Source: Nannocystis bainbridge (lineage in GTDB: Bacteria; Myxococcota_A; Polyangia; Nannocystales; Nannocystaceae). Taken from it: a DNA stretch of 64,000 bases. The position numbers were made by a program, and so were the translations under genes. Positions 83 to 59,564 of this stretch are shown here, piece by piece. The stretch lies in NCBI RefSeq assembly GCF_028368995.1, contig NZ_JAQNDL010000002.1:1600001-1664000 (forward strand), read 5' to 3'. The notes below the pieces were generated by a model. That model searched no databases and was not told the origin of the DNA. It was given only the letters and a program-made list of their open reading frames with translations. Position 1 is the first letter of the stretch. Every line of letters begins with the position of its first letter.

Positions 83-148
83 GAGCATGCGCGAACGGCC
101 ATGCTCGAAAGGGCATGTCCCCGAGGACATGCCCTCCGGGACACGCTC
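83..148. repeat. 14-bp-period palindrome array (GGACATGTCC-like), 5 units
   Basis: CATG at 86, 100, 114, 128 and CACG at 142; lies between convergent genes. Confidence 0.85.
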
Positions 149-157
149 AGCCGGCGC

Positions 158-640
158 CTACAGGTTCGACTGGATCTCCTTGAACAGGCGCTGCCACAGC
201 TCGCGCTCGCCCTCCGGCCCCTCGAGCACCCACACCTTGTCGCCGCTGACGTCGCGCTCGCCCATGAAGACCTTGGGATCCGCGGTGACCGCCGTGCTCG
301 CCCCGTCGCTCGACTCGAGGCGGAGGTAGTACTGGCGGGTGAAGTCGATCGCCTGCGCCGAGTAGTTCCCGCCCACCGCCATCGCGCGGATGAACTTCCG
401 CTCGGTCTTGATGATCCCCTTCTCCTCGTTCGCCACCGCGATGGGATAACCGAGCGTCTTGAGGGCGTCGAGCGTGGCCTTGAACACCTCCGCGGGCGGG
501 TCCGCGAAGGTATGCGTGCCATGGGTCTGGACCTCCTCCGGCGTGATGACCGAGGCCTTGCTACCGGCGCAGCCTGTGAGCAGCGGAGCCCCGGCCAGGG
601 GCAGCGTGAGGACAATGGAACCTACGAGATTACGGAGCAT
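158..640 (-). CDS. Hypothetical lipoprotein
   Basis: Signal peptide with lipobox LTGC; ATG at 640 preferred over 658. Confidence 0.8.
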   Translation of the reverse strand: MLRNLVGSIVLTLPLAGAPLLTGCAGSKASVITPEEVQTHGTHTFADPPAEVFKATLDALKTLGYPIAVANEEKGIIKTERKFIRAMAVGGNYSAQAIDFTRQYYLRLESSDGASTAVTADPKVFMGERDVSGDKVWVLEGPEGERELWQRLFKEIQSNL

Positions 641-689
641 CGCACCGGACGGTATCACCCGTGTCGCCCGGCGCCAATCATCGCGCCCG

Positions 690-1430
690 TCAGAACCCGA
701 TCTTGCGCATCACGAAGCGCGGCAGCCAGCGGATCACCAGCATCACCCAGCGCCAGATCGACGGCGTGTACACCACCGGCAGCCCGCCGTCGATCGCCCG
801 CAGCACCTGCTGGGCCACCGCCTCCGGCTCACCCGCGAACGGCGGCGGCTTCAGGCCCGCGGTCATCCCCGTCTTCACGAACCCGGGCTTGACCGTCACC
901 GTCTTCAGCCCTTGCGCGCGGAACTTGTGGTCGAGCCCCTCGAGGTAGCGCGACAGCCCGGCCTTGGCCGCCCCGTACAGCACCACAGGCTTGCGCCCGC
1001 GCTCGCCGGCCACCGACGAGAACACGCACAGCGTCCCGCCCCCGCGCGCCAGCAGCCGCTTGCGCGCGTGCTCGCAGAACACCACCGTGCCGGTGAAGTC
1101 GACCGCCAGCACCTGCTCCGCCAGCGCCGCGTCGGCCTCCATCGCCTCCTGCGTGGCGAACAGCCCGGCCGTCACCACCACCGTGTCGAACCCGCCGAGC
1201 GCCGCCTCGGCAGCGTCGAGCGCCGCCGCGAACGTCGACGACACCGCAAGGTCGCACGCGTGCGTCCCGACGACTGCGTGCTGCGGGTGTCGGGCCGCCA
1301 GGTCGGCCGCGCTGCGCTGCAGCTCCTCGGCCTCGCGCCCGAGCAAGAACAGCTGATCGCCGCGCTCGCTCATCCGTCGCGCCAGCGCGCGGCCCATCCC
1401 CTTGGTGGCTCCGAGGAACACCACTCGCAT
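690..1430 (-). CDS. SDR-family oxidoreductase, DprE2-like
   Basis: GATKGMG Rossmann motif, SSVAG, YGAAK (YxxxK), KPGFVKTGMT; directly downstream of a DprE1-like gene. Confidence 0.85.
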   Translation of the reverse strand: MRVVFLGATKGMGRALARRMSERGDQLFLLGREAEELQRSAADLAARHPQHAVVGTHACDLAVSSTFAAALDAAEAALGGFDTVVVTAGLFATQEAMEADAALAEQVLAVDFTGTVVFCEHARKRLLARGGGTLCVFSSVAGERGRKPVVLYGAAKAGLSRYLEGLDHKFRAQGLKTVTVKPGFVKTGMTAGLKPPPFAGEPEAVAQQVLRAIDGGLPVVYTPSIWRWVMLVIRWLPRFVMRKIGF

Positions 1431-1477
1431 GCCCCGCGAGGCTCGCAGGTGCCGCGCACCGGCGCAAGGGCTCGCGC

Positions 1478-4089: not shown

Positions 4090-4313
4090 CCGACGTGCAC
4101 GAGCTCCGCTTCTCCCGTCAGCTCTACAGCGGCGAGGCCGTCGACCAGGCCGTCAAGGCGTTCGCCCGCTTCGCCGTCTTCGAGCTCGAGCAGACCGACG
4201 ACGCCTGGGTCGTGCGCATGACCCCGAGCGACCCGAACCTGGCCCGTCGCCTGCGCGGCGAGCTCGGCAACCACGCTCTCGGCCTCACCGTCCAGCGCGG
4301 AGGCGCCAAGTGA
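4086..4313 (+). CDS. Small HxsD-like protein (75 aa)
   Basis: MTDVHELRFSRQLYSGEAVDQAVKAF...GELGNHAL; GTGA overlaps with both neighbours; second copy of the LY...GE(F/L)xN pattern. Confidence 0.7.
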   Translation: MTDVHELRFSRQLYSGEAVDQAVKAFARFAVFELEQTDDAWVVRMTPSDPNLARRLRGELGNHALGLTVQRGGAK

Positions 4314-5818
4314 ACCTGTCCCTTCAGCCAGCCCCCGCGCTCGTGCAGCTGCGCCCGCGCGCCGGCACCCAGGCCTACTTCCGCTGGCGCGCCGTCGGCG
4401 ACCGGGTCCTCGTCACCAACCTCGAGGGCAACTGGCTGCTGCTGAGCCAGCCCGAGTTCGCCGCCTTCCTCGAGGGACATGTCCCCGAGGACAGCGACCT
4501 CCACGCCCGCCTCAAGGCCGGCAACTTCCTGCGCGCCCACTACGACGTGCGCGCCGCCGCCGAGCGGATCCGGGCCCGCAAGAGCTTCCTCGCCGGCGGC
4601 CCCAACCTGCACATCCTCGTCGTCACCCTCCGCTGCAACGAGACCTGCGTCTACTGCCACGCCTCGCGCGCCAACATGGATCAGGTCCACACGGACATGA
4701 CCCGCGAGACCGCCGAGCGCGCGATCGACCTGGTGTTCCGCAGCCCGAGCCCGTTCGTCACCATCGAGTTCCAGGGCGGCGAGCCGCTCGTCAACTTCGA
4801 CGTCGTCAAGCACGCCATCGAGTACGCCGTCGACCAGAACCGCGTCCACGGCAAGCGCCTGCAGTTCACGATGGTCTCGAACTTCGCCCTGCTCGACGAC
4901 GCCAAGCTCGAGTACCTGATCGAGCACCGCGTCCAGCTGTGCACCAGCATCGACGGGCCCGAGAAGCTGCACAACGCCCAGCGCAAGCTGCCGACCCAGG
5001 ACGCCCACCAGCGGGCGATCCGCTGGATCACCCGCATCAACCAGGCTTACGAGGCCGCCGGCCTCGACCCGACCCTCTACCACGTCGAGGCCCTGCTCAC
5101 GACCACGCGCGAGACCCTGCCGCTGTGGAAGGAGGTCGTCGACACCTACGTCGGCCTCGGCTGCAAGGCGCTGTTCCTGCGCGCCATCGACCCGTTCGGC
5201 TTCGCCGACCGCACCCGCAAGCGGCTCGAGTACCCGCGCCACGACTACATGCAGTACTACCGCCGCGCGGTCGACTACATGATCGAGCTCAACAAGCAGG
5301 GCGTGCAGATCCTCGAGCGCTACGCCAGCATCTTCCTGACCAAGATCCTGCGCGGCGAGGACCCCAATTTCCTCGACCTGCGCAGCCCCTCGGGCGCCGG
5401 CATCGGCGCGCTGGCCTACAACTACGACGGCCAGGTGTTCACCTGCGACGAGGGCCGCATGCTGCACGAGATGGGCGACGACACGTTCCACCTCGGCGAC
5501 GTGCGCACCAGCAGCTTCCGCGACCTGGTCGGCCACGAGACGGTGCGGGCGATGACCATCGCCTCCAACCTCGACGGCCAGCCCGACTGCGTCCACTGCA
5601 CCTACCAGCCCTACTGCGGCACCATCCCCAGCTTCAACCACAAGAGCCAGGGCTCGATCTTCGGCCGCATGCGCGAGAGCAACGTCTGCGCGGTCCACAA
5701 GGGCATCCAGGACTACCTGTTCGAGAAGCTGGCCGAGGCCGACCCCGAGACCCTGGCGATCTTCGACCGCTGGACCACCGTCCGCAGCCGCGACCACTTC
5801 GTCCAGCCGGCCCCGTGA
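4310..5818 (+). CDS. hxsB: His-Xaa-Ser system radical SAM maturase HxsB (SPASM-type)
   Basis: CNETCVYC (CxxxCxxC), EFQGGEP, DLRSPSGAGIG, FTCDEGRM and C-terminal CVHCTYQPYCG. Confidence 0.85.
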   Translation: MNLSLQPAPALVQLRPRAGTQAYFRWRAVGDRVLVTNLEGNWLLLSQPEFAAFLEGHVPEDSDLHARLKAGNFLRAHYDVRAAAERIRARKSFLAGGPNLHILVVTLRCNETCVYCHASRANMDQVHTDMTRETAERAIDLVFRSPSPFVTIEFQGGEPLVNFDVVKHAIEYAVDQNRVHGKRLQFTMVSNFALLDDAKLEYLIEHRVQLCTSIDGPEKLHNAQRKLPTQDAHQRAIRWITRINQAYEAAGLDPTLYHVEALLTTTRETLPLWKEVVDTYVGLGCKALFLRAIDPFGFADRTRKRLEYPRHDYMQYYRRAVDYMIELNKQGVQILERYASIFLTKILRGEDPNFLDLRSPSGAGIGALAYNYDGQVFTCDEGRMLHEMGDDTFHLGDVRTSSFRDLVGHETVRAMTIASNLDGQPDCVHCTYQPYCGTIPSFNHKSQGSIFGRMRESNVCAVHKGIQDYLFEKLAEADPETLAIFDRWTTVRSRDHFVQPAP

Positions 5819-5832: not shown

Positions 5833-5884
5833 GGACATGTCCCCGGGGGCATGCCCGAATGAACATGGTCGATCGCACATGTCG
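5833..5884. repeat. 14-bp-period palindrome array, 4 units
   Basis: CATG at 5836, 5850, 5864, 5878; convergent junction. Confidence 0.85.
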
Positions 5885-5909: not shown

Positions 5910-6245
5910 TCAGCCCTTCTCCGCCAGGTAGCGGAGCCAAAAGTCGACGTCGACGATGTTGTCCTCCGCGGTGATCTGCTCCGCGGTGCGCCGCCCGAGC
6001 CGCACGTTCAGCGCGTAGGCGGCGAGGTCGGCGGCGATGTGCCCGCGTCGCAGGCACTCGAGCAGATCGTCGATGCCGACCTCTTCCTGGCTCGCGTGCA
6101 CGATCGTGTTGGCCGCGGCGATATGGTCCAGCGGCGGCCGCTGGGGGTCGCGGATCGCCCGCAACGCTTCTGCCAGCTCCATCCTGTAGTCGCTGTGTTC
6201 CCGGCGCCTCGCTCGCCGGCGCGCACGGCTGTGACGGTGGCTCAT
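5910..6245 (-). CDS. Hypothetical protein
   Basis: 111-aa ORF directly downstream of the MFS fragment, with protein-like composition. Confidence 0.6.
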   Translation of the reverse strand: MSHRHSRARRRARRREHSDYRMELAEALRAIRDPQRPPLDHIAAANTIVHASQEEVGIDDLLECLRRGHIAADLAAYALNVRLGRRTAEQITAEDNIVDVDFWLRYLAEKG

Positions 6246-8163: not shown

Positions 8164-10398
8164 TCAGCGCCGCGGCGTGATGCGCCAGCACTTGTGGATC
8201 TTCGGGCTGCGCGCGAAGTCCTTGGGGATCGTCGTCGCCGACAGGTCCTCGATGTCGAGGTCGGCGAGGGCCTCCTGGTCGAGGCGGAAGCGCCGGTAGT
8301 TGGTCGAGAAGATCAGCACCCCGTCGCGCTCGAGCAGGCGCACCGCGGACCGGATCAGCTCGACGTGGTCGCGCTGCACGTCGAGCACGCCCTCCATCCT
8401 CTTCGAGTTGGAGAACGTCGGCGGGTCGAGGAAGATGGCGCCGTAGCGGCGCAGCTCGCGGGCCATGAACTCGCGGCACTCGGCCTCGACGACCCGGTGC
8501 TGCGGCCCGCGCAGCCCGTTGAGCTCGAGGTTGCGGCGGGCCCACGCGCAGTACGTGGTCGAGAGGTCGACCGTGGTCGTCGACAGCGCCCCGGCCTTGC
8601 CGGCGTAGACCGAGGCCGTACCGGTGTACGCGAACAGGTTGAGGAACCGCTTGCCGCGGGCCACCTGGCCGACCAGCGCGCGGGTGTCGCGATGGTCGAG
8701 GAACAGCCCGGTGTCGAGGTAATCGGTGAGGTTGACGAGGAAGCGCCCTGGCCCCTCGCGCACCTCGATCAGGTCGCCGGCGTCGTCGCGGCGGCCGTAC
8801 TGCCCGCCGCCCTTGGCCCGCTCGCGGCGCTTGCAGACCACCTGCGCCGCCGGCAGCTCGAGCGCGTCGGGGATCACGCGCAGCGCCTCGCGCAGGCGCG
8901 CCGCGGCCCGCACCGGATCGATCTCGGACGGCGCCGCGTACTCCTGGACCAGCGCCCAGTCGCGGTAGAGGTCGACCGCGACCGCGTACTCGGGGATGTC
9001 GGAGTCGTAGACCCGGAAGGCCTCGATCCCGTGGCGCGCGGCCCAGCTGCCGAGCTGCTTGCGGTTCTTCCGCAGCCGATTGAACAGCGCCTCGCCGCCC
9101 TCGCTGCGGGTGTACGTGCGCGGCGGCGGGGCCTCGCGCGGGATCTCGAAGCGCAGCAGGTTGACCGCGATCGCCCCGTTGTAGAGCACGTGGCGCCGCT
9201 CGGCCCGCAGCCCGATCGCGTGGCCGAGCTCGAGGTCGGGCGCCAGGATCGCCGCCTTCCAGCCGCCGAAGTGGTCGCGCAGGCGCGCGCCGAGCAGCTC
9301 GTAGAGCGCCGGCATGTCGGCCCGGACCCCGAGCCGCTCGCCGTACGGCGGGTTGGTGGCGACGAGGCCCGTGATCTTCGGGACATGTCCCGAAGGACCT
9401 GTCTCGGCAGACTTGACCTCACGAACATGTCCCGAAGGACCTGTCTCCGGGGCCACCAGCTCGGCGAGCTCGCGCCGCTCGACGCGGATCCGGCCGCCGA
9501 GGCCCGCGCGCGCCGCGTTGGCGATCGCCGCCTTGACCGCCGCCGGATCGCCGTCGTAGCCGAAGATCGGCGGCACCTTGTCGATCCCGATCGCCGCCCG
9601 CGCGCGCGCCTCGGTCAGCAATTCGTCCCACAGCGCCTTCTGGTGGCCACGCCAGCCGAGGAAGCCGAAGTACTCGCGGCCGAGCCCCGGCGCGCGGTCG
9701 CAGGCCATGTGGGCCGCCTCGATCAGCAGCGTGCCCGAGCCGCACATCGGATCGACCAGCAGCGCGCCCGCGGCCGCCAGCGCCGGCCAGCCCGCGCGCA
9801 TCAGCAGGCCCGCCGCCAGGTTCTCTTTGATCGGCGCCTCGGCCCCTTCTTCGCGGTAGCCGCGACGGTGTAGGCCCTCGCCGGCGAGGTCGATCGAGAT
9901 CACGGCCTCGTCGTGGGATGTCTCCTGGAACATGCCCTTGATGCCATGTCCCGCCGGCTTGCGCAGGTGCACGCTGACGCGCACGTCGGGCCGCTGCACC
10001 GCGACGTCGGGGCGCACGCCGCTGCCGGCATTGAACTGATCGACGATCGCGTCCTTGACCCGCTGCGCGCCGAAGCGGGTGTGCACGATCGCCGCGTTGG
10101 CGCCGGTGAAGTCGACCGCCATCGTCCCGCGCGCCGACATGTGCTGGCGCCAGTCGACCCGCTGCACCGTGGTGTAGAGCTCGTCGGCGTCGCGCGCCGG
10201 CCCCGTCGAGACCTCGAGCAGCACGCGCCCGGCCAGCCGCGACCACAGGCACGCGCGGTAGCCGATGACCAGCGGCCCGCGGAAATACACGCCCGCCGGT
10301 TGGAGCCGGATCGCCGTCGCACCGAGCGCGCGGAGCTCGTCGGCGAGCAGCTCGAGGAGGCCTTGCGGAGCGCTGGCGAAGAAGTTGTGCTCGTTCAC
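8164..10398 (-). CDS. rlmKL: Bifunctional 23S rRNA m2G2445/m7G2069 methyltransferase RlmKL
   Basis: CLWSRLAGRVL, LHRRGYR, DPMCGSGT, NPPYGERL, YLDTGLFLDHR, LNLFAYTG and DPPTFSNSKRM. Confidence 0.95.
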   Translation of the reverse strand: MNEHNFFASAPQGLLELLADELRALGATAIRLQPAGVYFRGPLVIGYRACLWSRLAGRVLLEVSTGPARDADELYTTVQRVDWRQHMSARGTMAVDFTGANAAIVHTRFGAQRVKDAIVDQFNAGSGVRPDVAVQRPDVRVSVHLRKPAGHGIKGMFQETSHDEAVISIDLAGEGLHRRGYREEGAEAPIKENLAAGLLMRAGWPALAAAGALLVDPMCGSGTLLIEAAHMACDRAPGLGREYFGFLGWRGHQKALWDELLTEARARAAIGIDKVPPIFGYDGDPAAVKAAIANAARAGLGGRIRVERRELAELVAPETGPSGHVREVKSAETGPSGHVPKITGLVATNPPYGERLGVRADMPALYELLGARLRDHFGGWKAAILAPDLELGHAIGLRAERRHVLYNGAIAVNLLRFEIPREAPPPRTYTRSEGGEALFNRLRKNRKQLGSWAARHGIEAFRVYDSDIPEYAVAVDLYRDWALVQEYAAPSEIDPVRAAARLREALRVIPDALELPAAQVVCKRRERAKGGGQYGRRDDAGDLIEVREGPGRFLVNLTDYLDTGLFLDHRDTRALVGQVARGKRFLNLFAYTGTASVYAGKAGALSTTTVDLSTTYCAWARRNLELNGLRGPQHRVVEAECREFMARELRRYGAIFLDPPTFSNSKRMEGVLDVQRDHVELIRSAVRLLERDGVLIFSTNYRRFRLDQEALADLDIEDLSATTIPKDFARSPKIHKCWRITPRR
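9381..9447. repeat. 14-bp-period array inside rlmKL, including a 42-bp-offset duplication
   Basis: Cores at 9384, 9398, 9412, 9426, 9440; ACATGTCCCGAAGGACCTGTCTC at 9383 and 9425; peptide ETGPSGHV occurs twice. Confidence 0.85.
9914..9951. repeat. 14-bp-period array inside the rlmKL THUMP region
   Basis: GATG 9917, CATG 9931, CATG 9945; encodes PAGHGIKGMFQETS. Confidence 0.7.
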
Positions 10399-12374: not shown

Positions 12375-12671
12375 GAGAGACACCTCCAACTTTCGCATGA
12401 TGCCCCGGGCAGTTTCGCGCCACAAGAGAACTCGAGGTGCCGTCGAGGCCCCATCGCGTGCGCGCATCGGTCCACCCGCGGACCTCGCACCTCGCCGACG
12501 CGCCGGCCCCAGCCGGCCCCGCGCGCGACCGCGGCCGCACGAGACGCGGAGCCTGACGCCGGCCGCAGCGAGGACGTGGAGCATCACCCGACCTGCAGTT
12601 CACGCGTCCGCAGTCCAGGCGCGATGACGGGAATGCTCCGCCTGCGCTACGGTTTCCTGGTCGCTGACGTG

Positions 12672-17029: not shown

Positions 17030-17103
17030 GAGCATGTCCCGAGGGACAGTACGAAATGTCTATCGAGACATGTCTATCGGAGCATGTCCGAATGGCCATG
17101 CGA
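17030..17103. repeat. 14-bp-period palindrome array
   Basis: Cores at 17033/17047, then 17055, 17069, 17083, 17097; convergent junction. Confidence 0.8.
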
Positions 17104-20331: not shown

Positions 20332-20423
20332 CCCTGTCCTTCGGGGCATGCCCCTTCGAACCTGTCCCTGGCGACCTGTCCGAACGAACCTGTCCTTGAT
20401 CACCTGCCCTTGAGGACCTGTCC
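20330..20423. repeat. 14-bp-period array, 7 units, filling the intergenic gap
   Basis: C(A/C)TG cores at 20333, 20347, 20361, 20375, 20389, 20403, 20417. Confidence 0.9.
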
Positions 20424-23162: not shown

Positions 23163-24869
<1,707 letters not shown>

Positions 24870-28138: not shown

Positions 28139-28163
28139 GGGACATGTCCGTTTCGCCATGAAC
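28126..28163. repeat. 14-bp-period array overlapping a stop codon
   Basis: CATG at 28129, 28143, 28157. Confidence 0.8.
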
Positions 28164-44035: not shown

Positions 44036-44181
44036 AGCATGTCCGTGCGGACATGCCCTCGCGGACGTGTCGCTTCGGACATGTTCACAAGGCCGCCCGC
44101 GCGTCCAGGCCGACCGAGCCTGCGCCGCAGAGCATGTCCGTGAGGACATGCCCTCGCAGACATGTCGCTTCAGACATGACC
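44021..44181. repeat. Two near-identical 4-unit 14-bp-period arrays, 95 bp apart
   Basis: Cores at 44038, 44052, 44066, 44080 and 44133, 44147, 44161, 44175; both preceded by GAGCCTGCGCCG(T/C)AG. Confidence 0.88.
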
Positions 44182-44226: not shown

Positions 44227-45207
44227 TCACACTCCGAGCAGCTCGCGCACGCTGCCGGCGACCGCCGCAGTGGGCAGGCACATGCGGGCCCCGGCGGCGC
44301 GCGCGGCCATGCGGATCTCGTCGGTCGGCGCGTCGTGGACCGCGATGATCTGCGGGTTGCTGGGCCCCGCGGCCAGCTTGGCGATCACGTCGGTGCTCTT
44401 GAGGTCGGGCACCGTCATGCTGAGGATCACGTAGCGCGGCGGCGCGGCCTGGGCGACCAGCAGCGCGTCGGCGCCGGTCTGGGCGGTCTTGATCTCGAGC
44501 GCCGGCGTCGCCCGCTCGAGCTCCTCCTTCACCTTGGCGCGGAAGTCGGCGTTCTGGGTCACCAGCAGCACCTTCGAGTTGTCGCGCGCGTCGTTCGACG
44601 GCTCGATGCGGGGCTCGTCGCGCAGGTGGAACGCCTCGACCACGCGGCGACGGACCTCGGCGACGTCGAGCGGCTTCTTGAGGCAGGCCGACGCGCCGGC
44701 CGCCAGGATCCGCTCCATGTTGGCCTCGGTGTAGTAGCCGGTGATGGCGATGATCTCGGTGTGCATCGTCGACGCGTCGCGCTTGAGGCGAGCGCACACC
44801 TCGAAGCCGTCGACGCCGGGCATCATCAGGTCGAGGAAGATGAGCTGCGGGCGGAACGTCGCCACCAGCCGGCCGGCGTCGAACGCGTCGCGGGCGACCT
44901 CGACGTCGAACTGATGCGACAGGTCCTTGAGGACATCCCGCACCAGGTCGAGCACGACCGGCTCGTCGTCGATCACGAGCAGGCGGCCGACCTCGTCGCC
45001 GGTCGGCACGGTGAACGGGATCCCGCGCTCTTGACAGACGCGCTCGAGATCCTCGCGCCGCACGCGGCGGTGGCCGCCCACGGTCTTGAACGCCGGGATG
45101 AGGCCGTCCTCGATCCAGCGGATCACGGTGGTCGGCGTGACGCAGCAGATCCGCGCGACGTCGTGGGTGGAGTAGGTGTCTTTGACTGGAGTGCGTCCGC
45201 GGCTCAT
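44227..45207 (-). CDS. Response regulator: N-terminal excisionase/MerR-like HTH, receiver and degenerate second receiver
   Basis: YSTHDVARICCVTPTTVIRWIEDGLIPAFKTVGGHRR; VIDDE...FLDLMMPGVDG...KKP; second domain has ILSMTVP in place of the phospho-Asp. Confidence 0.88.
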   Translation of the reverse strand: MSRGRTPVKDTYSTHDVARICCVTPTTVIRWIEDGLIPAFKTVGGHRRVRREDLERVCQERGIPFTVPTGDEVGRLLVIDDEPVVLDLVRDVLKDLSHQFDVEVARDAFDAGRLVATFRPQLIFLDLMMPGVDGFEVCARLKRDASTMHTEIIAITGYYTEANMERILAAGASACLKKPLDVAEVRRRVVEAFHLRDEPRIEPSNDARDNSKVLLVTQNADFRAKVKEELERATPALEIKTAQTGADALLVAQAAPPRYVILSMTVPDLKSTDVIAKLAAGPSNPQIIAVHDAPTDEIRMAARAAGARMCLPTAAVAGSVRELLGV

Positions 45208-47969: not shown

Positions 47970-48074
47970 GAGTGCGGCGGCATGCTTAGCAAAATTCCCC
48001 GCCTGGTGCCCGGGGTCGAGTTCGCGCAGCGCCGTCTCGCGCCCCCCGGCCACCCCTGCTAGTCTGCCGCGCCG

Positions 48075-48791
48075 ATGACGCTCACCGACCCTGGCCGCCT
48101 CGCGGGCGTGCGGCTCGCCGCCACCGTCGTCCTCCTGCGCGAGCGCGCCGCCGGCGATCCCCAGGTCTTCATGCTCCGCCGTAGCGCCCGGAGCCCGTTC
48201 ATGCCCGACACCCTGGTGTTCCCCGGCGGCGCGGTCGACCCCGACGACGGCCCCGAGGGCAGCGACGAGGCCTTCGACGCCGCCGCGCGGCGCGAGTGCC
48301 GTGAGGAGGCCGGCGTCGCCCTCGAGGCCCGCGACCTCCACTGGTTCGACACCTGGCTCACCCCCGCCGCCGAGCCGCGCCGCTACTTCGCCCGCTTCTA
48401 TCTCGCGCGCCTGACCGAGGGCGAGTTCGAGGACGCCGCCGCCGACGGCCACGAGACCCACGAGGGCCGCTGGGCCACCCCGGCGGAGCTCCTGGCCGCC
48501 TGGCAGCGCGAAGAGGTCGACCTCCCGCCGCCGACGCTGTGCACCCTCATGCGCCTGGCCGACGAGCGCCGCGCCGGCCTCGTCGGCCTCCCCGCCGCCC
48601 TCGTGCACGAGCCGATCCTCCCCAAGGGCCTCCTCCAGCCCGACGCCGACGGCGAGGCGCGCCTCGTCGTCGTGCTCCCCCACGACCCGGCCTACCCCGA
48701 GCTGCCCGGCGACGGCGTGCCCGCCCCCGCCCGCGTCGCCGACCTGCCCCACCGCCTCGTCCGCGCCGGGAGGACCTGGCGCCTGTGCTGA
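48075..48791 (+). CDS. NUDIX hydrolase (Nudt19-like)
   Basis: AATVVLLR, VFPGGAVD...AARRECREEAGV, WLTP..RRYFARFY and LPPPT. Confidence 0.88.
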   Translation: MTLTDPGRLAGVRLAATVVLLRERAAGDPQVFMLRRSARSPFMPDTLVFPGGAVDPDDGPEGSDEAFDAAARRECREEAGVALEARDLHWFDTWLTPAAEPRRYFARFYLARLTEGEFEDAAADGHETHEGRWATPAELLAAWQREEVDLPPPTLCTLMRLADERRAGLVGLPAALVHEPILPKGLLQPDADGEARLVVVLPHDPAYPELPGDGVPAPARVADLPHRLVRAGRTWRLC

Positions 48792-48797: not shown

Positions 48798-48916
48798 GGC
48801 CATGGCCCCCGCGCCATGCTCTTCGGGGCATGTCGCAAGCGACAGGCGCGAACAGCCATGTCCGAAACGACATGTCCCTCGCGCCAGCCACCGCAGCTGA
48901 CCGCAGCGACATGTCC
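48798..48916. repeat. 14-bp-period palindrome array
   Basis: Cores at 48801, 48815, 48829, 48843, 48857, 48871; CGACATGTCCCTCGCGCCAGCC repeated at about 48868 and 48907. Confidence 0.85.
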
Positions 48917-48934: not shown

Positions 48935-50023
48935 ATGCGCCTCTCGACCTGCCTCCTCGCCCTCCTCCTCGCCGCCTGCGGCCGCACCGAGCCCCAAGGT
49001 CCGCGCTCCGCCACGGCGCCCGCCGGCGCGCCCGCGCCGACCGACGCCGCAGATCCGGCCGCCCCTCCCGCGCCCGTCGTGCCGGCCGCGCCCGCGACCC
49101 CCGACGAGCGGCGCGTCCTCGCCTGGCTCGACCCCGACTCGCCCGCCGTCGCGTACATGCGGCTGCCCGCCGACCTCGAGCCCGAGGCGCTCGGCGAGCT
49201 GTTCGCCTTGCCGCCGCGCGCGCTCGCCCTGCTGCGCGCCCCGCTGAGCCTCGAGTCCGGGCTCGCCGCCCTCGTCGGCCCCGCCGCCCCGCCGCCCGAG
49301 CAGTGGCTCGCGCGCGACCTCGTCGTCATGCAGCCCGTGCTCGCCCGCGGCCCCTACCTCGTGCGCCGCCTGCTCGCGCCGCGGGCGGACGTCGAGGCCT
49401 GGCTGCGCAGCGGCGGCATGCAGGTCGACACCGTCGAGGGCCTCGCGGTGTGGACCCCCGGCCAGTCCGCGCCCGAGGCTCCGGTCGACGGCGCCCCCGG
49501 CCTCGCCCCCTCGCTCGTGTTCCCTTGGCGGCTCGTCTTCCTCGCCGACGATCTGGTCGGCGCCTTCTCCCTCACCGAGATGGGCAACGGCCTCGGCCCG
49601 CTGACCGCCGCCCGCGACCTGCCTCCGTCCGATCTCACGCGCATGATCGGCGAGGTCGTCGCCGCCGACCCCGCGCTCCTGCTCGAGCTGTACGTCCAGG
49701 GCGCCATGCTCCACTTCGATCTCAGCGACGACGTCGGGGTCGCCAAGCTGTCCCTGCGCCGCCTCGTCGAGGCCGACGGCGCGCGCTCGTTGCCCCGCCA
49801 CGACGCCGCCGGCATCGACGGCGAGGTCATCCTCCAGCCGCTGGGCGACGTCGCCGACGCCGCCGCCGCGCTCGAGGCCCGCGCCCCCGCCGGCGCCGCC
49901 ACCGACGTCCTGCGCGACCTCTACAAGGCCGTCGCCTACAGCCAGGACGGCCCGGTCGTGCGCGGCCGCCTGCAGCTCGCCGCCGACGACCTCGCGCCCC
50001 TGCGCCGCGGAGGCGGCCGTTGA
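48935..50023 (+). CDS. Hypothetical lipoprotein
   Basis: MRLSTCLLALLLAAC lipobox; Pro/Ala linker followed by a globular region. Confidence 0.75.
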   Translation: MRLSTCLLALLLAACGRTEPQGPRSATAPAGAPAPTDAADPAAPPAPVVPAAPATPDERRVLAWLDPDSPAVAYMRLPADLEPEALGELFALPPRALALLRAPLSLESGLAALVGPAAPPPEQWLARDLVVMQPVLARGPYLVRRLLAPRADVEAWLRSGGMQVDTVEGLAVWTPGQSAPEAPVDGAPGLAPSLVFPWRLVFLADDLVGAFSLTEMGNGLGPLTAARDLPPSDLTRMIGEVVAADPALLLELYVQGAMLHFDLSDDVGVAKLSLRRLVEADGARSLPRHDAAGIDGEVILQPLGDVADAAAALEARAPAGAATDVLRDLYKAVAYSQDGPVVRGRLQLAADDLAPLRRGGGR

Positions 50024-50057: not shown

Positions 50058-50918
50058 GTGAGCCCCGCGCTCTCCGCTCCGCGCGCCCTCGGCCTCCTCC
50101 GGTCGCGCCTCGCCCTGCTGCTCGCGCTCGCCGCCTGCAACGCCCCACCCGCCGGCGATCCGCCCTCTTCGCGACCTGCCCCCACGGCCATGTCCGAGAC
50201 GACAGGCCCGATCGCCCAGGTCCCCGAGGACATGTCCAAACAGACATGCCCACAAGTGCAGGATCCGATCGGCGACCTCGAGTGGATCCCCGCCGACGCC
50301 CGCGTCGTCGCCCTGTTCGACCTCGGCGACCCTGGCGTCGACGACGCCGCCGCCGAGCTCGCGCGCGCCAGCGCCACCACCCCCGGCATGCCCGTGGTCG
50401 CCGCGCTCGGCCTCGGCTTCGTCGCTACCCAGCTGCACATCCTCCGCCGCCAGCTCGCCGACGCCGCGCTGACCCCCCGCGAGCTGCTCCTCCTCCACGA
50501 TCCGGCCGGCGCCGTCGTCTGGATCGTGCGCGTCCGCTGCGACCTCGCCGTCCTCCAAAACACCCTCGCGCGCGCCTGGGGCGTCACCAGCCGCACCACC
50601 GCCGCCGGCCCGCTCGCCGAGCCCGACCCCGCCCGCGGCTTCCCCCACGACCTCGTCTTCCTCGGCGACGATCGCCTCGCCCTCGTGCCCGCCGGCGCCG
50701 GCGGCAAGCTGCGGCGCTGGCTCGAAGGCCAGGCCGGCCCGCCCGACCTCGGCGAACGCCGCGGCGAGACCCCCGGTCAGGCGCTCGCTCGCCTCGATCC
50801 CGCCCCGATCCGCGTCGTGCTCGCCGGCCGCGGCTTGCTCGCTGGCGACGCCGCCAGCGCCCCTCGCACCGTCCGCGCCTGGCCGGACCGCGTCGCCCTC
50901 GACGCCGCCCCGCCGTGA
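50058..50918 (+). CDS. Hypothetical lipoprotein
   Basis: LLLALAAC lipobox; LEWIPADARVVA resembles LAWLDPDSPAVA in the upstream gene. Confidence 0.72.
   Translation: MSPALSAPRALGLLRSRLALLLALAACNAPPAGDPPSSRPAPTAMSETTGPIAQVPEDMSKQTCPQVQDPIGDLEWIPADARVVALFDLGDPGVDDAAAELARASATTPGMPVVAALGLGFVATQLHILRRQLADAALTPRELLLLHDPAGAVVWIVRVRCDLAVLQNTLARAWGVTSRTTAAGPLAEPDPARGFPHDLVFLGDDRLALVPAGAGGKLRRWLEGQAGPPDLGERRGETPGQALARLDPAPIRVVLAGRGLLAGDAASAPRTVRAWPDRVALDAAPP
50172..50265. repeat. 7-unit 14-bp-period array encoding the lipoprotein linker
   Basis: Cores at 50175, 50189, 50203, 50217, 50231, 50245, 50259. Confidence 0.82.
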
Positions 50919-51017: not shown

Positions 51018-51069
51018 GGACATGCCCCCTCGGACATGTCTTTCAAAGCATGCCCCTTAGAACATGTTC
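51018..51069. repeat. 14-bp-period palindrome array, 4 units
   Basis: CATG at 51021, 51035, 51049, 51063. Confidence 0.88.
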
Positions 51070-51307: not shown

Positions 51308-51862
51308 ATGCCTGTCGACCCGGGCCCGAGTGCACCTTCATCCTCTGCCGCCATGTCCGTCGCCGCCGTGCTTTCCGGAGGCTCCGGTCCCTGGCCCAGC
51401 CACCCGCCCGCGCTCGCCGACGACGTCAACTCGATCGACGCCATCGTCCGCGCCATGTACGCCTCGGTCTCGTTCACCGAGGGGCGGGGCCCCGACGCCG
51501 AGCGTCTCGCCAGCCTGTGCGTCCCGCACGGCCGCCTGATCAAGGTCCACGCCAACAACATCGACGACATGAGCGTCCCCGAGTTCGTCGAGCGGGTGCA
51601 GACCCGGATCAGCGAGCAGGGCCTGCGCGGCTTCTCCGAGCGCGAGCTGTTCCGCCGCACCGAGGTGTTCGCCGGGATCGCCCACGTCTTCACCACCTAC
51701 GAGAGCCGCACCGACGACGGCGGCGCCGACCACCTGCTCTACCGCGGCATCAACAGCATCCAGCTGCGCCACGACGGCCGGCGCTGGTGGATCCTCACGA
51801 TCCTCTGGGCCGACGAGCGCGACGACTCCCCGATCCCCGCGGCGTATCTTCCTCGCACATGA
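51308..51862 (+). CDS. NTF2-like/SnoaL-like fold protein
   Basis: DVNSIDAIVRAMYASVS, GFSERE, FAGIAHVFTTYE and RGINSIQL..DGRRWWI; TATAGT 7 nt upstream. Confidence 0.78.
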   Translation: MPVDPGPSAPSSSAAMSVAAVLSGGSGPWPSHPPALADDVNSIDAIVRAMYASVSFTEGRGPDAERLASLCVPHGRLIKVHANNIDDMSVPEFVERVQTRISEQGLRGFSERELFRRTEVFAGIAHVFTTYESRTDDGGADHLLYRGINSIQLRHDGRRWWILTILWADERDDSPIPAAYLPRT

Positions 51863-52896: not shown

Positions 52897-55110
<2,214 letters not shown>

Positions 55111-55128: not shown

Positions 55129-55172
55129 GGAGCCCCGCGATCTCGCCGAGGTCGCGGGGCTCCTGTATTTTT
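55129..55172 (+). terminator. Probable intrinsic terminator
   Basis: GGAGCCCCGCGA (55129-55140) pairs with TCGCGGGGCTCC (55152-55163), followed by TGTATTTTT; begins 18 nt after the stop. Confidence 0.75.
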
Positions 55173-55312
55173 GGACATGCCCTCGAGAGCATGTTCCAAA
55201 TGACATGTCCGATGCGACATGCATCTCTTCATGCCGCGCTAACTTTGGGCAAGCGCTTTAGAGCATGTTCCGAATGACATGTCCGATGCGACATGCAGCT
55301 CTCCATGCCGCG
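55173..55312. repeat. Two near-identical 14-bp-period arrays, 74 bp apart
   Basis: CATG at 55176, 55190, 55204, 55218 and 55264, 55278, 55292; about 53-nt block duplicated. Confidence 0.88.
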
Positions 55313-57109: not shown

Positions 57110-57378
57110 GCCGCTCGCCGGCATCCACCAGCCAGGTCTCACGCGCCATACCGGCCTCTCTCGCGCACGCAACGACCCGACCCACCTCAACCGTCCGACC
57201 GGGCTCGCCTCTCGTCACTGCGCGCGTCGACCGTGAGCCGCGCCTCGGTCGGCCGCTGCGCACCGCGATCTCCCGCACCGAGCTCCGCGCGCGCAGCGAC
57301 CAGGCACCTCGTGTCCCGACCGCGCTCGGCACGCGGCGGTCGTTTGCCCCGCGCGGCCCGCGGCGTTACGCTCCGCGC

Positions 57379-57873
57379 GTGTCGACCCGCGCCGCGCTGT
57401 TCTCCTTCGTGCTTGTGACCTCGGCGGTGCTCGGATGCACCGGCGCCGGCAAGGCACCTGCCCCTTCGGACATGGCCCCGAAGACATCCACCGCCACGGC
57501 AGGCGGCGGCGACCTCGAGGGCTTCCCGCTGTCCCGCCTGCGCTTCGAGCACAACCCCGTCGAGCCGCTCACGTTGCCGGAGCCGCTGAACGAGGCCGAC
57601 CTCAAGGCTCGCGGCGTGCAGAGCCACCGCGTGCTGACGGCCACCAGCCCGCAGGTGTGGCTCTACGTGTTCGAGTTCGCCGACCAGAACGCGATGTTCG
57701 CCGCGCTGCAGGACCCGCGCCTGCTCCTGCCGGGCGAGCCGCCGTACTACCCTGCCACGGCGTTCACCGGCCGCTGGCTGCTCGTCACCGGCTTCCCCTC
57801 GGAGAAGCCGGTCTCGCCGGAGATGGAGGCCGCGCGCACCATGTTCCTCGAGCGCTGGGCCGGCCAGGAGTGA
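57379..57873 (+). CDS. Hypothetical lipoprotein
   Basis: Lipobox VLGC; TACGCT 6 nt upstream of GTG; 3 array units at 57457/57471/57485. Confidence 0.72.
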   Translation: MSTRAALFSFVLVTSAVLGCTGAGKAPAPSDMAPKTSTATAGGGDLEGFPLSRLRFEHNPVEPLTLPEPLNEADLKARGVQSHRVLTATSPQVWLYVFEFADQNAMFAALQDPRLLLPGEPPYYPATAFTGRWLLVTGFPSEKPVSPEMEAARTMFLERWAGQE

Positions 57874-57894
57874 TCCTCGCCCCGGCGCAGTCGC

Positions 57895-59121
57895 TCAGCC
57901 GAGCACCACGCGCACCGACTTGACCAGCGCCCGCAACGCCGTCACGACCTCCTCGGTCGTCTCGCCCTTCACGATCGCGTAGCCCTCGCCCTCGTAGCCG
58001 GACGCGCGCGGCTGCCCGACCTGCGGCAGCTTGCGGTCGACCACCCACGGGCCGGCCTGCTCTTGCGCCTCGGCCAGGCCCTCGACCGCGCGGACCACCT
58101 GCCCCGGACCTTGCCCGCGGAAGAACGCCGTGCCGGCCGCGAACTGGCGCGGCGGCGCCTCGAAGCGGTCGAACACCATCAGCTCGGCCCACTTCTGCCA
58201 CATGTCGACCCCGTGGCAGAGGCCCATCATCGGCATCAGGTGCACGCCGGGCGGGCGGGCCGCCACCTCGCTGATCACCATCGAGCCGTCGGGGCGGAGG
58301 AACCACTCCATATGAGTGAGCGCCGTGCCGACCCCGAGGGCCTGCAGCGCGCGCACGTTGAGCGCGCGGAACGTCTGCGCGTGCGGCTGCAGCTGCTCGC
58401 GCGGCAGCAGCACGCAGTACTGAATCCACGGGTTCTCGAGCACCTGCAGCGGCCCTGGCAGGTAGTAGCTCGACGAGTGCCACACCGGCCTGCCGTCGAT
58501 CGTGATCGTCTCGAACGTGTGCTCCTCGCCGCGCACGAACTCCTCGGCCTGGGCCGGGTTCGACGGCGTCACGAACAGCTCGGCGAGCGCCGACGCCAGC
58601 GACTCGTCGTCGGTCGCGCGGACCGTCGCCCGCGAGCCCAGGCCCGCCGGCGGCTTGAGCACGACCGGGTAGCCGACCTCGCGCACGAACGCCCGCGCCT
58701 CCTCGGCCGAGCCGATCAGCGCCTGCCTCGCCACCGGCAGCCCCGCCTCGCGCAGCTTCGCCTTCATCCGGTTCTTCTCGCGGAAGTTGCGGGCGATCGC
58801 CTCCGTCATGCCCGGGATCCCCAGCTTGTCGCGCGCCACCGCCAGCGGGGTCTGCATCTGCTCGAGGAACCCGATCAGGCGATCGACGCGCCCCCACCCG
58901 GCCTGGAACGCCTTGCCCGCGGACACCAGCTGCTCGGCGTCGAGGCAGTCACGGACCTGGTAGTGCCCGACCACGCGACCGCGGTAGCGCTCGGGCAGCG
59001 TCGCCTCGGACTCGTGGGTGATGAGGCCGATCCGGACATCGGGCAGCGACGTCAGCGCGTCGAGGCACTGCAGGATGTTGGCGCTGTAGAACGGGGCGAC
59101 GTAGAGGACGTGGGCGGGCAT
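57895..59121 (-). CDS. ATP-grasp domain protein (carboxylate-amine ligase-like)
   Basis: FREKNRMK, GYPVVLKPPAGLGS, EEFVRG, THMEWF and SEVAARPPG. Confidence 0.88.
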   Translation of the reverse strand: MPAHVLYVAPFYSANILQCLDALTSLPDVRIGLITHESEATLPERYRGRVVGHYQVRDCLDAEQLVSAGKAFQAGWGRVDRLIGFLEQMQTPLAVARDKLGIPGMTEAIARNFREKNRMKAKLREAGLPVARQALIGSAEEARAFVREVGYPVVLKPPAGLGSRATVRATDDESLASALAELFVTPSNPAQAEEFVRGEEHTFETITIDGRPVWHSSSYYLPGPLQVLENPWIQYCVLLPREQLQPHAQTFRALNVRALQALGVGTALTHMEWFLRPDGSMVISEVAARPPGVHLMPMMGLCHGVDMWQKWAELMVFDRFEAPPRQFAAGTAFFRGQGPGQVVRAVEGLAEAQEQAGPWVVDRKLPQVGQPRASGYEGEGYAIVKGETTEEVVTALRALVKSVRVVLG

Positions 59122-59470
59122 GCGCGGCCGCGATCATGCCAGATCCACCGCGACCCGGCGACGCGCTCGGTCAGCGAGAACCGCCGGTCGCACGCGATCC
59201 CGACCGGTCGATGACCGCGGGAGCCCAGCCTCGGCCCGCAAAACGACGTCTCGCAGCGGCGCGTGGCGGTCACGGGACCGGGGCGATCCAGGCCGTGGTC
59301 CGGCGCCCTCCGACGGTCCCCGACCCGGCGCAGCCTCCGATCGGCGAGACCTGCCCGCGTGGCCGATCCTGCGAGCGAGTCGCGGCGAGCCCTCGACGGT
59401 CCTGCGCGATCTTCCGCCCGCCCGGCGCAGCCGACCGTGCTCTCGCCGGCGCCGCGAGCCCTCGCGTGCC

Positions 59471-59564
59471 CCACATGTCTGTTTCGACATGTCTCCGACG
59501 ACATGCCCTTATCGACATGCCCTCGGCGACATATTCCCCACGACATGCCCGATCGGACACTCCG
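59471..59564. repeat. 14-bp-period palindrome array, 7 units
   Basis: Cores at 59474, 59488, 59502, 59516, 59530, 59544, 59558; just 3' of rnc. Confidence 0.9.

Follow-up and report, generated by a model that had tools for sequence, protein, structure and literature searches.

What kind of element are the short palindromes that recur at a fixed step across this 64-kb stretch of DNA (hereafter the window), part of the 11-Mb genome of a soil bacterium? PWM analysis of the window and the genome gave a unit with the consensus GGRCATGYCC followed by a free 4-nt spacer, repeated with a strict 14-bp period. Arrays were called at a PWM threshold of 4 bits with at least three units and one missing unit permitted, and at period 14 there were 22 arrays in the window and 1,736 (7,344 units) in the genome, versus 11, 46, 8, 31, 8 and 2 genomic arrays at control periods of 11, 12, 13, 15, 16 and 17 bp, respectively, under the same caller settings. 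Genomic arrays comprise 3 to 12 units, plus one array of 21. A preliminary description of this DNA had reported more than 20 loci with 3 to 7 copies, in agreement with the 22 window arrays of 3 to 7 units, and the loci it cited are all as described, including CATG/CACG cores at 86, 100, 114, 128 and 142, seven units at 20330-20423, and the arrays recovered at 29150-29215, 48798-48877, 50172-50251 and 59471-59550.

The phase was also evident when arrays were not called. In the window, 319 sites match the degenerate core [AG]C[AC][TG]G[TC]C, with core-to-core distances of 14, 28, 42 and 56 bp occurring 26, 17, 14 and 10 times and other distances 0 to 5 times. Among the 41,205 matches in the genome, distances of 14, 28, 42, 56 and 70 bp occur 2,115, 1,122, 954, 567 and 310 times, whereas 13 and 15 bp occur only 145 and 154 times, which is background level. 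The peaks at 14, 28 and 42 bp that had been anticipated are therefore present in window and genome above the control distances, and the claim of exact 14-nt spacing holds genome-wide. In a shuffle comparison, the phased triple pattern RCATGY-N8-RCATGY-N8-RCATGY had 8 matches in the window against 0.00 expected from 100 dinucleotide-preserving shuffles. Three units span 42 bp, about four helical turns.

The window arrays are listed in the table below. Eight of the 22 lie inside called ORFs and one further array does so partially; therefore, the family is not purely intergenic. Array 9381..9446 carries a 42-bp (3-unit, 14-codon) duplication at a site that has two units in 5/5 relatives, and the orthologous segments of the linker at 33289..33340 vary from 108 to 294 nt and from 4 to 9 units. 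Array 50172..50251 directly follows a lipoprotein-type signal peptide (..LALAAC), and array 9914..9951 may be coding sequence that matches by chance. Array 20330..20423 fills an entire co-directional gap, from the stop TGA at 20329-20331 to the next start at 20426. The near-copy pair 44035..44086 and 44130..44181 indicates a local segmental duplication.

Palindrome arrays called in the window. Because the unit equals its own reverse complement, arrays have no defined orientation.
Position	Array	Gene context	Fold, translation or conservation
83..134	4 units plus degenerate fifth (GGGACACGCT)	convergent: stop of + gene at 76, stop of - gene 158..640	RNA fold z = -5.6
5833..5884	4 units	convergent, 4310..5818 (+) / 5910..6182 (-)	
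9381..9446	5 periods	in RlmKL-like methyltransferase ORF 8164..10398 (-)	translated ETGPSGHV...ETGPSGHV
9914..9951	3 units, weak	in RlmKL-like methyltransferase ORF 8164..10398 (-)	
12945..12982	3 units, weak	in ORF 12633..15905 (+)	
17052..17089	3 units	convergent, 15902..16987 (+) / 17141..17701 (-)	
20330..20423	7 units		RNA fold z = -1.1
24887..24952	5 units, overall dyad symmetry	convergent, 23163..24869 (+) / 25068..25907 (-)	RNA fold -46.9 kcal/mol, z = -6.9
28126..28163	3 units	overlaps end of ORF 26354..28138 (+)	
29150..29215	5 units	convergent, 28227..29111 (+) / 29264..30178 (-)	
32570..32607	3 units	in ORF 30494..34243 (+)	near-identical in 5 relatives
33289..33340	4 units	in length-variable linker of WD40-repeat ORF	translated ...DMPDRSGPKGHVEKDMS...
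33397..33434	3 units	linker region shared with array 33289..33340	conserved in 5 relatives
36963..37014	4 periods (3 called), weak	in ORF 35586..37289 (-)	
44035..44086	4 units	from stop of gene 43520..44035 (+), convergent region	
44130..44181	4 units, near-copy of 44035..44086	95 bp downstream of array 44035..44086	
48798..48877	6 units	between 45204..48752 (-) and 48935..50023 (+); gene calls uncertain, the - ORF could start at CAT of the first unit	RNA fold z = -2.1
50172..50251	6 units	in ORF 50058..50918 (+)	translated ..PTAMSETTGPIAQVPEDMSKQTCP..
51018..51069	4 units	co-directional, 50058..50918 (+) / 51353..51862 (+)	RNA fold z = -1.85
55159..55224	5 units	starts 49 nt past stop of gene 52897..55110 (+)	
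55261..55298	3 units, near-copy of last three units of 55159..55224, 102 bp upstream		
59471..59550	6 units	33 nt downstream of stop of gene 59583..60368 (-)	RNA fold z = -6.5

Genome-wide, the arrays are placed at gene ends. Among intergenic regions of at least 40 nt, an array occurs in 563 of 1,240 convergent regions (45%), in 510 of 3,347 co-directional and in 74 of 1,447 divergent ones, counts that are approximate because the gene models come from a crude ORF caller made for this analysis. The median distance from the upstream stop to the array is 24.5 nt in 494 co-directional cases, with 179 nt left between the array and the following start; for 522 convergent regions with a single array, the two stops lie at median distances of 15 and 19 nt. 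Convergent arrays have more units than co-directional ones (4.82 vs 4.24) and a higher fraction of Watson-Crick cross-pairs (0.706 vs 0.664). At least 343 arrays, about a fifth, lie in frame within genes, in linkers, where copy number changes by in-frame 42-bp duplications (42 bp being 3 units or 14 codons).

This distribution is that of REPs, being high in copy number, downstream of genes and in convergent or unidirectional gaps. According to PMC3733652, which also mentions Rickettsia palindromic elements (RPE), REPs occur downstream of genes, in the gaps of convergent and unidirectional ORFs, as well as in genes, and clustered REPs with 5-bp stems exist; a second source describes an E. coli REP as both terminator and mRNA stabiliser (bioRxiv 10.64898/2026.03.23.713779). 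The arrays resemble REP/BIME elements of Enterobacteria and Pseudomonas, and the clustered short-stem GTAG-1 REPs of Thauera, in their high copy number, regular clusters, rarity in divergent gaps, hairpin potential in the transcript, occasional in-frame clusters in genes and species- or genus-specificity. They differ in that perfect-type palindromes of 10 bp, separated by 4-nt spacers, follow one another head to tail in a strict 14-bp phase, whereas classical REPs are imperfect palindromes of 20-40 bp that alternate in orientation and have variable linkers between them, and in that the unit centre is conserved as sequence and not as a pair. BIMEs are regularly spaced REPs that alternate in orientation; in the arrays the spacing is strictly regular, orientation is undefined for a self-complementary unit, and the asymmetric variants CCTG/CAGG form direct series 254 times versus 122 alternating. 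The unit consensus lacks a GTAG or CGTC tag, and array ends and flanks have no conserved sequence, with no information beyond one degenerate half-unit.

The preliminary description had suggested a REP-like element spread by a trans-acting enzyme; the distribution at 3' ends, rich in convergent and poor in divergent regions and with intragenic clusters, fits the first half of this proposal best; the spreading enzyme is not supported. The RAYT/TnpA(Y1) gene that it proposed to look for was not found, since Y1_Tnp/RAYT (PF01797) had 0 matches in the host genome (90.5% complete), although 6 of the 14 control genomes, E. coli among them, were positive in the same search. Nor were recently dispersed copies detected by exact 38-mer sharing in the genome outside large contig-end repeats, which hold all 15 distant array pairs that share a 38-mer. 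A MITE, which would show terminal inverted repeats, a target-site duplication and near-identical copies at dispersed sites, was rejected on the same grounds, conserved termini being absent and identical dispersed copies confined to contig-end repeats. CRISPR, with repeats of about 24-48 bp, unique spacers of like length and no more than a few loci, was rejected given the 10-bp core, 4-bp spacer and 1,736 loci, in line with the earlier remark that the units are too short. Rfam covariance models at gathering score had 0 matches on either strand of the whole window, and literature searches found no description in print of such an array family, as the preliminary description had also stated.

The arrays resemble the hairpin-forming repeats by which other bacteria mark and protect their transcript ends, and appear to be a new kind confined to one genus. 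On our analysis the chances are about even that they constitute a new genus-specific REP/BIME-like family whose transcribed hairpins would serve as terminators or RNA stabilisers. Each 14-nt period (..TGYCC-NNNN-GGRCA..) would supply half-stems, so that neighbouring units would pair in the transcript across the variable 4-nt spacer, forming the loop, and a chain of short stacked hairpins would result. Because the unit is palindromic, the same structure would form on both strands, as would suit convergent gene junctions. It is reasonable to suppose that such structure at the 3' end blocks or weakens read-through and, by analogy with E. coli REPs, that it protects the upstream mRNA against 3' exonucleases. 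A further sequence-specific reader, be it protein or nuclease, would probably take part, because the near-invariant CATG centre is not explained by pairing. Intrinsic (Rho-independent) terminators are likewise G+C-rich hairpins located after stops and bidirectional between convergent genes, but the arrays are multi-unit, share a family sequence and lack a T/U run; this class was rejected since, despite the hairpin potential, there is no T enrichment after the arrays (T fraction 0.09-0.18 beyond the last spacer). The location of about a fifth of the arrays in genes, where a terminator would be harmful, is a point against a terminator reading.

Three lines of evidence, namely unit covariation, a sense-strand preference for G and U and the better pairing of convergent arrays, point to selection for pairing of neighbouring units in the transcript. 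Across the genome arrays, adjacent units covary at every pair predicted by the hairpin model, with odds ratios (OR) of 1.46 and 1.37 for positions 7/2, 1.65 and 1.61 for 8/1 and 1.87 and 1.82 for 5/4, against 0.97 at lag 2 and 1.14 and 1.09 for direct similarity as controls. With OR of 1.4-1.9 this covariation is modest, and inverted duplication could account for a part of it, since at lag 2 the proportion of reverse-complementary spacer pairs is 3.4%, versus 1.2% at random. Once the GC-skew effect is removed, G is favoured over A, and U over C, on the mRNA-sense strand, by 1.78-fold at positions 2/7 (95% CI 1.48-2.16) and 1.37-fold at positions 1/8 (1.16-1.64), against 1.05 (0.99-1.10) in spacers and flanks, which is the pattern expected where G.U pairs are tolerated.

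The GC-skew effect itself is strong, the ratio of G/T to A/C usage being 3.05 for genes on the G-rich strand and 0.77 on the C-rich strand. Together with the palindromic units and the adjacent-unit covariation, this would fit single-stranded DNA hairpins or cruciforms that act at the DNA level, for example as substrates of an unrecognised HUH-type or other structure-specific enzyme or as replication or recombination signals. We consider such a role very improbable, given that the skew effect is also seen in spacers and flanks and is therefore general composition, that the unit-specific asymmetry follows the direction of transcription, and that there is neither a Y1 transposase nor a sign of recent mobility in this genome.

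Folding gave a mixed picture. Three of six folded window arrays reach z = -5.6 to -6.9; the other three, at z = -1.1, -1.85 and -2.1, are a point against the hairpin reading. Over 400 arrays the mean fold energy is -31.8 kcal/mol, versus -29.8 for rebuilds from pooled units and -30.6 for permuted unit order. The best-conserved window array (20330, 7 units), built mostly of CCTG-variant units in direct series, each of them conserved across 6 species, shows no folding advantage over shuffles (z = -1.1).

The unit centre raises the question of whether double-stranded DNA is what is recognised. In an unbiased set of 226 units, flanked by strong units on both sides with no condition on the unit itself, the centre is C 0.89, A 0.89, T 0.87 and G 0.88, with R/Y at flanking positions, so that information is highest at CATG and declines outward. 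Centre changes in this set are A4 to C in 22 units and to G in 3, and T5 to G in 23 and to C in 5; transitions, which G.U pairing would permit, are thus the rare class, the common transversions break pairing instead of preserving it, and the centre is not stem-like, a point against the hairpin reading. So is the arrangement of centre variants in direct and not complementary series, the unit after a CCTG being CCTG again in 133 cases and the complementary CAGG in 69, with direct odds ratios between adjacent units of 5.2 and 10. A loop could moreover tolerate changes in length, yet spacings of 13 and 15 bp do not rise above background. Changes to G2 and to C7 seldom coincide in a single unit (OR 0.46 for G2 with C7), as though each unit had to keep one good half-site.

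Proteins bound to BIMEs have been proposed to form roadblocks or insulators, or to serve as topological or nucleoid elements. By such a reading each 10-bp palindrome of the arrays would bind a dimer, dimers would interact at 14-bp steps, and the whole would act in one of these ways at gene ends. The centre, its C4/G5 transversions, the half-site avoidance, the preserved phase with near-neutral spacers and the conservation of a poorly folding array in six species all favour it, yet we hold it as a possible but rather doubtful explanation, since the sense-strand G/U bias and compensatory covariation are unexpected for a reader of double-stranded DNA and no candidate protein was found. The MetJ family had 0 matches in the host genome; the P53 family also had 0, a result that is uninformative since no control genome had any either. 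The preliminary description had first proposed a protein polymerising along DNA as nucleoid organiser or segregation factor: its premises, the conserved phase and CATG centre, stand, but covariation and strand bias point to transcript pairing, and the nucleoid or segregation role gains no positive support from arrays that lie at gene ends with an even density, 110-214 per Mb on every contig, and no chromosomal domain pattern.

More tentatively, a dedicated sequence-specific factor might read the phased CATG palindromes, which would then be a genus-wide punctuation of factor-dependent bidirectional terminators or insulators. If this is true, nearly half of the convergent gene junctions would be punctuated, the factor would read both structure and sequence, the system would replace classical intrinsic terminators, and its arrays would even be tolerated as translated linkers in genes. 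Hairpin plus T-run terminators in positions 1-20000 of the window number 8, versus 4.2 +/- 2.1 in shuffles, barely above chance.

The family is restricted to one genus, most likely Nannocystis, within which arrays are inherited at orthologous sites, their cores and phase being retained while spacers drift at about the neutral level. In a 6-species alignment, cores are conserved per column and spacers are not, with zero indels across 6 units. Ungapped extension from flank anchors into the relative G010 gave identities of 0.80 (C3) and 0.71 (G6) versus 0.48-0.56 in spacers, against a baseline in array-free 3' regions of 0.57 declining to 0.44, and the phase is kept by 55 of the 70 unit hits in G010. 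These comparisons show the arrays to be old and passed on vertically; they lengthen and shorten by local duplication of blocks in multiples of 14 bp, or of 42 bp within genes.

Such turnover would also be expected of selfish or neutral repeats, remnants of a small element dispersed in the genus ancestor, which now change by replication slippage only and sit at 3' ends because insertions do least harm there. Unit number does vary at the same site (the ortholog of array 48798..48877 in the relative G007 has 24 units, with higher-order repeats of ~70 bp, versus 6 here), and the in-frame 42-bp duplications, the tolerance of arrays in coding regions, the confinement to one genus and the local near-copies ~95-102 bp apart are all in keeping with this view. 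We nevertheless judge it unlikely, since cores and phase stay above the array-free intergenic baseline across the divergence of the genus, covariation and strand-specific bias speak for selection, arrays are present in 45% of convergent regions, and the REP-type transposase, conserved termini and identical dispersed copies beyond contig-end repeats are all missing.

Other known systems share single traits with the arrays. MetJ metboxes and plasmid ParR/omega sites are short, partly palindromic units in strict head-to-tail phase, each unit being bound by one dimer and the dimers contacting one another cooperatively, and a replicon has them at a few loci for regulation or partition; our arrays have the same layout but occur in ~1,700 copies at gene 3' ends in a genome with no MetJ-family protein. 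The DNA uptake sequences of Neisseria and Haemophilus are genus-specific motifs of 10-12 nt present in thousands of copies, often paired at gene ends as terminator-like hairpins and also found in genes; they resemble the arrays in genus-specificity and in both locations, but are not palindromic units in phased tandem arrays. RPEs are palindromic repeats, single elements of ~100-150 bp, that lie in frame in protein-coding genes and are translated as extra peptide segments. The arrays in genes are likewise in frame and translated, but consist of phased 14-bp units, and the frame is kept by 42-bp (3-unit) steps.

The 14-bp arrays of the window belong to a large family in the genome of Nannocystis bainbridge (G000; 11.05 Mb in 5 contigs, 71.5% G+C), in which the window spans positions 1600001-1664000 of contig C3. 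The loci named in the preliminary description were found with the sequence given there, and its figure of more than 20 loci agrees with the 22 arrays called in the window. The peaks it had predicted at 14, 28 and 42 bp were also recovered: the degenerate core [AG]C[AC][TG]G[TC]C occurs 319 times in the window and forms 26, 17, 14 and 10 pairs at distances of 14, 28, 42 and 56 bp, with only 0-5 pairs at each other distance up to 70 bp. Across the whole genome the same core occurs 41,205 times, with 2,115 pairs at 14 bp, 1,122 at 28, 954 at 42, 567 at 56 and 310 at 70, while the counts at 13 and 15 bp (145 and 154) are at background level. Arrays were called as at least three units, each of at least 4 bits, at a set period with one missing unit permitted; period 14 gave 1,736 arrays with 7,344 units genome-wide, against 11, 46, 8, 31, 8 and 2 arrays for control periods of 11, 12, 13, 15, 16 and 17 bp under the same rule. 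In addition, a triple RCATGY pattern is present 8 times in the window versus 0.00 in 100 shuffles, and an artefact of chance or composition is therefore ruled out by the control periods, the distance histogram and the shuffles.

An iterated weight matrix yielded GGACATGTCC, followed by four A+T-richer, weakly specified bases. The same unit, GGRCATGYCC, was recovered from an unbiased set of 226 units that were flanked by two strong units and had no condition imposed on them, with centre frequencies of 0.89 (C), 0.89 (A), 0.87 (T) and 0.88 (G). The genome has 1,771 exact copies of GGRCATGYCC; called arrays account for 1,093 of them, and 1,295 fall in intergenic sequence, at a density 14 times that of coding sequence. 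Array size ranges from 3 units (674 arrays) up to 12, with a single array of 21, and density is 110-214 arrays per Mb on every contig, with no domain pattern.

Because the gene models are crude, coming from a home-made caller (codon log-odds learned from long, high-GC3 ORFs; 8,116 genes, 84% of the genome), all counts of array context are approximate: intergenic sequence holds 1,185 of the 1,736 arrays and called ORFs hold 433, with a further 118 crossing a gene end. When intergenic regions of 40 nt or more are counted, arrays are found in 45% of the convergent (563 of 1,240), 15% of the co-directional (510 of 3,347) and 5% of the divergent ones (74 of 1,447). Co-directional arrays (n=494) start a median of 24.5 nt past the upstream stop codon (quartile 8 nt) and end a median of 179 nt ahead of the next start. 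Single arrays in convergent regions (n=522) take up about half of the region and lie at median distances of 15 and 19 nt from the two stops. The array at 48798 may overlap a start codon, and the gene call there is uncertain.

The arrays are shared with relatives, as judged from the 70 kb syntenic to the window in five congeneric genomes, which are kin and not independent samples. Eighteen of the 22 window arrays could be anchored on both flanks in at least one relative, and at these sites the relatives show unit-like sequence in the same place, mostly as an array. Unit counts often vary: at 48798 the window has 6 units, and the ortholog in G007, another genome of the genus (L032-L035), has 24 in 589 nt, arranged in higher-order repeats that each span 5 units, or about 70 bp. 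In the seven-unit array at 20330, six units align without indels in six species, and the cores are kept column by column, including asymmetric CCTG variants, while the spacers vary freely. Since any unit aligns to any unit, conservation estimated with an aligner was inflated, and it was replaced by ungapped extension from flank anchors within 400 kb of synteny with G010 (same genus), which left a smaller but real contrast. At 26 anchors the identity of the centre C, A, T and G was 0.80, 0.68, 0.61 and 0.71, versus 0.48-0.56 for the spacers; in array-free 3' regions (27 anchors) it was 0.57, dropping to 0.44 with distance. Moreover, 55 of 70 unit-like hits in G010 fall at offset 0 relative to the G000 phase. 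Therefore, the cores and the phase are kept, and the spacers evolve at about the neutral level.

Several statistical traces point to pairing in RNA. Adjacent units covary at every pair of the hairpin formed across the spacer (OR 1.37-1.87), against 0.97 at lag 2 and 1.09-1.14 for direct similarity; the covariation is modest, and part of it may come from inverted duplications. Global dyad symmetry of the arrays was also considered and is weak, with reverse-complement matches between spacers at 2.2% (lag 1) and 3.4% (lag 2) versus 1.2% at random. In 375 co-directional arrays lying no more than 100 nt from a stop, uncorrected G.T cross-pairs outnumber A.C (1,206 versus 806), an excess that is mainly a strand effect of GC skew, as genes on the G-rich strand give a ratio of 3.05 and genes on the C-rich strand one of 0.77. 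The skew of G000 is strong and monotonic on the Mb scale and strongly shapes base use in intergenic spacers (G/C 1.66 versus 0.65 by strand), yet called genes show no preference for the G-rich strand (4,000 versus 4,116). Once the skew effect was separated, a sense-strand G/U bias was found at the stem positions, of 1.78 (95% CI 1.48-2.16) at 2/7 and of 1.37 (1.16-1.64) at 1/8; because G and U each pair with two partners, selection for pairing in RNA is expected to leave such a trace. Transcription-coupled mutation bias is insufficient to cause it, since spacers and flanks show only 1.05 (0.99-1.10). Arrays in convergent regions, where both strands would need to fold, exceed co-directional ones in length and in pairing. 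Real arrays also fold slightly better than artificial ones, the mean being -31.8 kcal/mol against -29.8 for rebuilds from pooled units and -30.6 for reordered units.

Pairing leaves the sequence-specific centre and the strict phase unexplained. The CATG centre is the best-conserved part of the unit, and its variants among the 226 units are mostly pair-breaking transversions (C at position 4, 22; G at position 5, 23), with few of the wobble-compatible transitions (G at position 4, 3; C at position 5, 5); centre variants occur in direct series. The 4-nt spacer length is held more strictly than a loop would require, and three of six window arrays, including the array kept in six species, do not fold significantly better than shuffles. 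A protein that reads the arrays on DNA or RNA would account for the specific centre and the phase, and by eye the unit is a p53 half-site. Searches of the genome gave 0 matches to PF01340 for a MetJ-like reader and 0 to PF00870 for a p53-like one, the latter being uninformative because control genomes have none either. On balance we consider such a reader possible but rather improbable.

Array growth is local, by near-copies and block duplications. Near-identical pairs in single intergenic regions, at 44035 and 55159, indicate local segmental duplication of an array with its flank. The ends of arrays fade through one degenerate half-unit into background, with no termini, tag or T run. Array pairs with an exact 38-mer in common number only 17, and the 15 distant pairs all lie inside large contig-end repeats; a MITE is ruled out, there being neither conserved termini nor dispersed identical copies except in those repeats. 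The contig-end segments in which identical arrays recur are probably large repeats that broke the assembly. The suggestion that a trans-acting enzyme had spread the arrays is not supported, and a RAYT-driven REP is ruled out, as the genome has 0 matches to PF01797, a domain matched in 6 of 14 control genomes. The arrays thus match no known type of active mobile element. If they were purely selfish or neutral, the size dynamics would be accounted for, but the conservation, the covariation and the strand bias would not; this reading seems to us quite unlikely.

Our preferred reading, held with evenly balanced confidence, is that the arrays are transcribed hairpins placed at 3' ends and form a REP/BIME-like family, vertically inherited and under selection. 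By analogy with REPs we infer that the arrays would terminate transcripts and/or protect mRNA, and at convergent junctions would do so in both directions. Since classical hairpin-plus-U terminators are rare in myxobacteria and other very G+C-rich bacteria, the way their transcripts end is poorly understood; over the first 20 kb of the window, canonical terminators occur at close to the chance rate. Given that arrays stand at close to half of the convergent junctions in this 11-Mb genome, that their position, core and 14-nt phase are kept across the genus, and that they carry statistical traces of selection on RNA pairing, they are a concrete, testable candidate for a transcript-end signal. They are also candidate bidirectional terminator/insulator parts for engineering Nannocystis and related natural-product producers.

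According to PMC3733652, REPs lie downstream of genes, between convergent or unidirectional ORFs and at times within genes, and include clustered short-stem forms; a preprint (bioRxiv 10.64898/2026.03.23.713779) describes one E. coli REP as both terminator and stabiliser. The REP-like reading of the preliminary description stands as regards this gene-end biology, which the arrays share, but not as regards the three defining features of classical REPs (tag, RAYT transposase and own unit architecture), all of which they lack. The REP concept would thereby be widened to very short units in strict phase, without a RAYT transposase or sign of current mobility. In agreement with the preliminary description, whose author knew of none, no description of the family was found in the main texts of the full-text literature; hits to the literal motif were p53 papers and primers, and the main texts of PMC3733652, PMC2817692 and PMC12306157 contain neither "Nannocystis" nor "Myxococc", although their supplementary catalogues could list it. 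A known RNA family was rejected, with 0 Rfam matches at gathering score on either strand of the window.

In 343 of the 433 arrays called as coding, in-frame GC3 exceeds 0.85 on both 150-nt flanks, so these are truly within genes; judged from the control periods, chance calls among coding arrays number a few dozen at most. Examples in the window are translated as linkers. As a 14-bp period does not divide into whole codons, consecutive units pass through the three frames (GHV, DMS, TCP). Unit identity in coding arrays is raised at lags 3 and 6 (8.71 and 9.66, versus 7.0-7.4), which means growth by frame-keeping 42-bp steps, as in the RlmKL-like ORF, where a 42-bp duplication of three units is seen and 5 of 5 relatives have two units. 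A 42-bp superperiod in intergenic arrays is only small (lag-3 identity 8.14 versus 8.01 and 7.90); it becomes strong in coding arrays alone, where it mirrors the reading frame. With hundreds of in-frame copies translated into protein linkers, the family is a natural example of repeat DNA that shapes proteins.

Coordinates of arrays, neighbouring ORFs and other repeats (window positions unless a contig is named)
Feature	Coordinates	Strand	Remarks
RlmKL-like methyltransferase ORF	8164-10398	-	
Array in this ORF	9381-9446		read as ETGPSGHV..ETGPSGHV, just before NPPYG motif
Seven-unit array	20330 (start)		
Tandem Repeats Finder repeat	27557-27751		63-bp unit x3.1, coding-type, Cys-rich by codons
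Tandem Repeats Finder repeat	32966-33226		138-bp unit x1.9, coding-type, in WD40 ORF
Array in WD40 ORF	33289-33340		linker of variable length
Array pair	44035-44181		starts 44035 and 44130, 95 bp apart
ORF, longest form	45204-48803	-	
Array	48798-48877		
First unit of this array	48798-48807		its CAT is the ATG of the longest form of ORF 45204-48803
Array in ORF with lipoprotein signal peptide	50172-50251		segment immediately after signal peptide
Array pair	55159-55298		starts 55159 and 55261, 102 bp apart
Tandem Repeats Finder repeat	63742-63904		84-bp unit x1.9, coding-type
Contig-end segment, G000 contig C1	4.516-4.533 Mb		identical arrays recur
Contig-end segments, G000 contig C2	0.8-2.1 kb; 3.023-3.031 Mb		identical arrays recur
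Contig-end segment, G000 contig C5	711-717 kb		identical arrays recur
Nocardiopsis contig L016	7376-7413		perfect three-copy 14-bp microsatellite

The family appears to be confined to the genus. A two-unit pattern with at most one mismatch (200 matches in G000) was detected in 9 of 10 other genomes of the genus (6-126 matches), the missing one being 64% complete, and in none of 8 other genera of the family or 12 other families of the class. Among one genome per species of 185,579 species, the exact three-unit pattern occurs in 13 stretches, 12 of them in records titled Nannocystis; the thirteenth, in a Nocardiopsis contig, has no similarity to G000 and is a chance microsatellite. No viral contig carries the triple pattern. 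Like arrays in a sister genus were rejected, as 200 kb of its genome G011 gave no lag-14 peak with a method that does pick up the signal in 400 kb of G000 (the 41-kb sample of a second sister-genus genome, G013, is too little to judge). In the same G011 stretch (C1 1-200000, L048-L057), exact 6-mer repeats are slightly more frequent at lags 10, 11 and 20 (111, 95 and 90, versus about 50-75).
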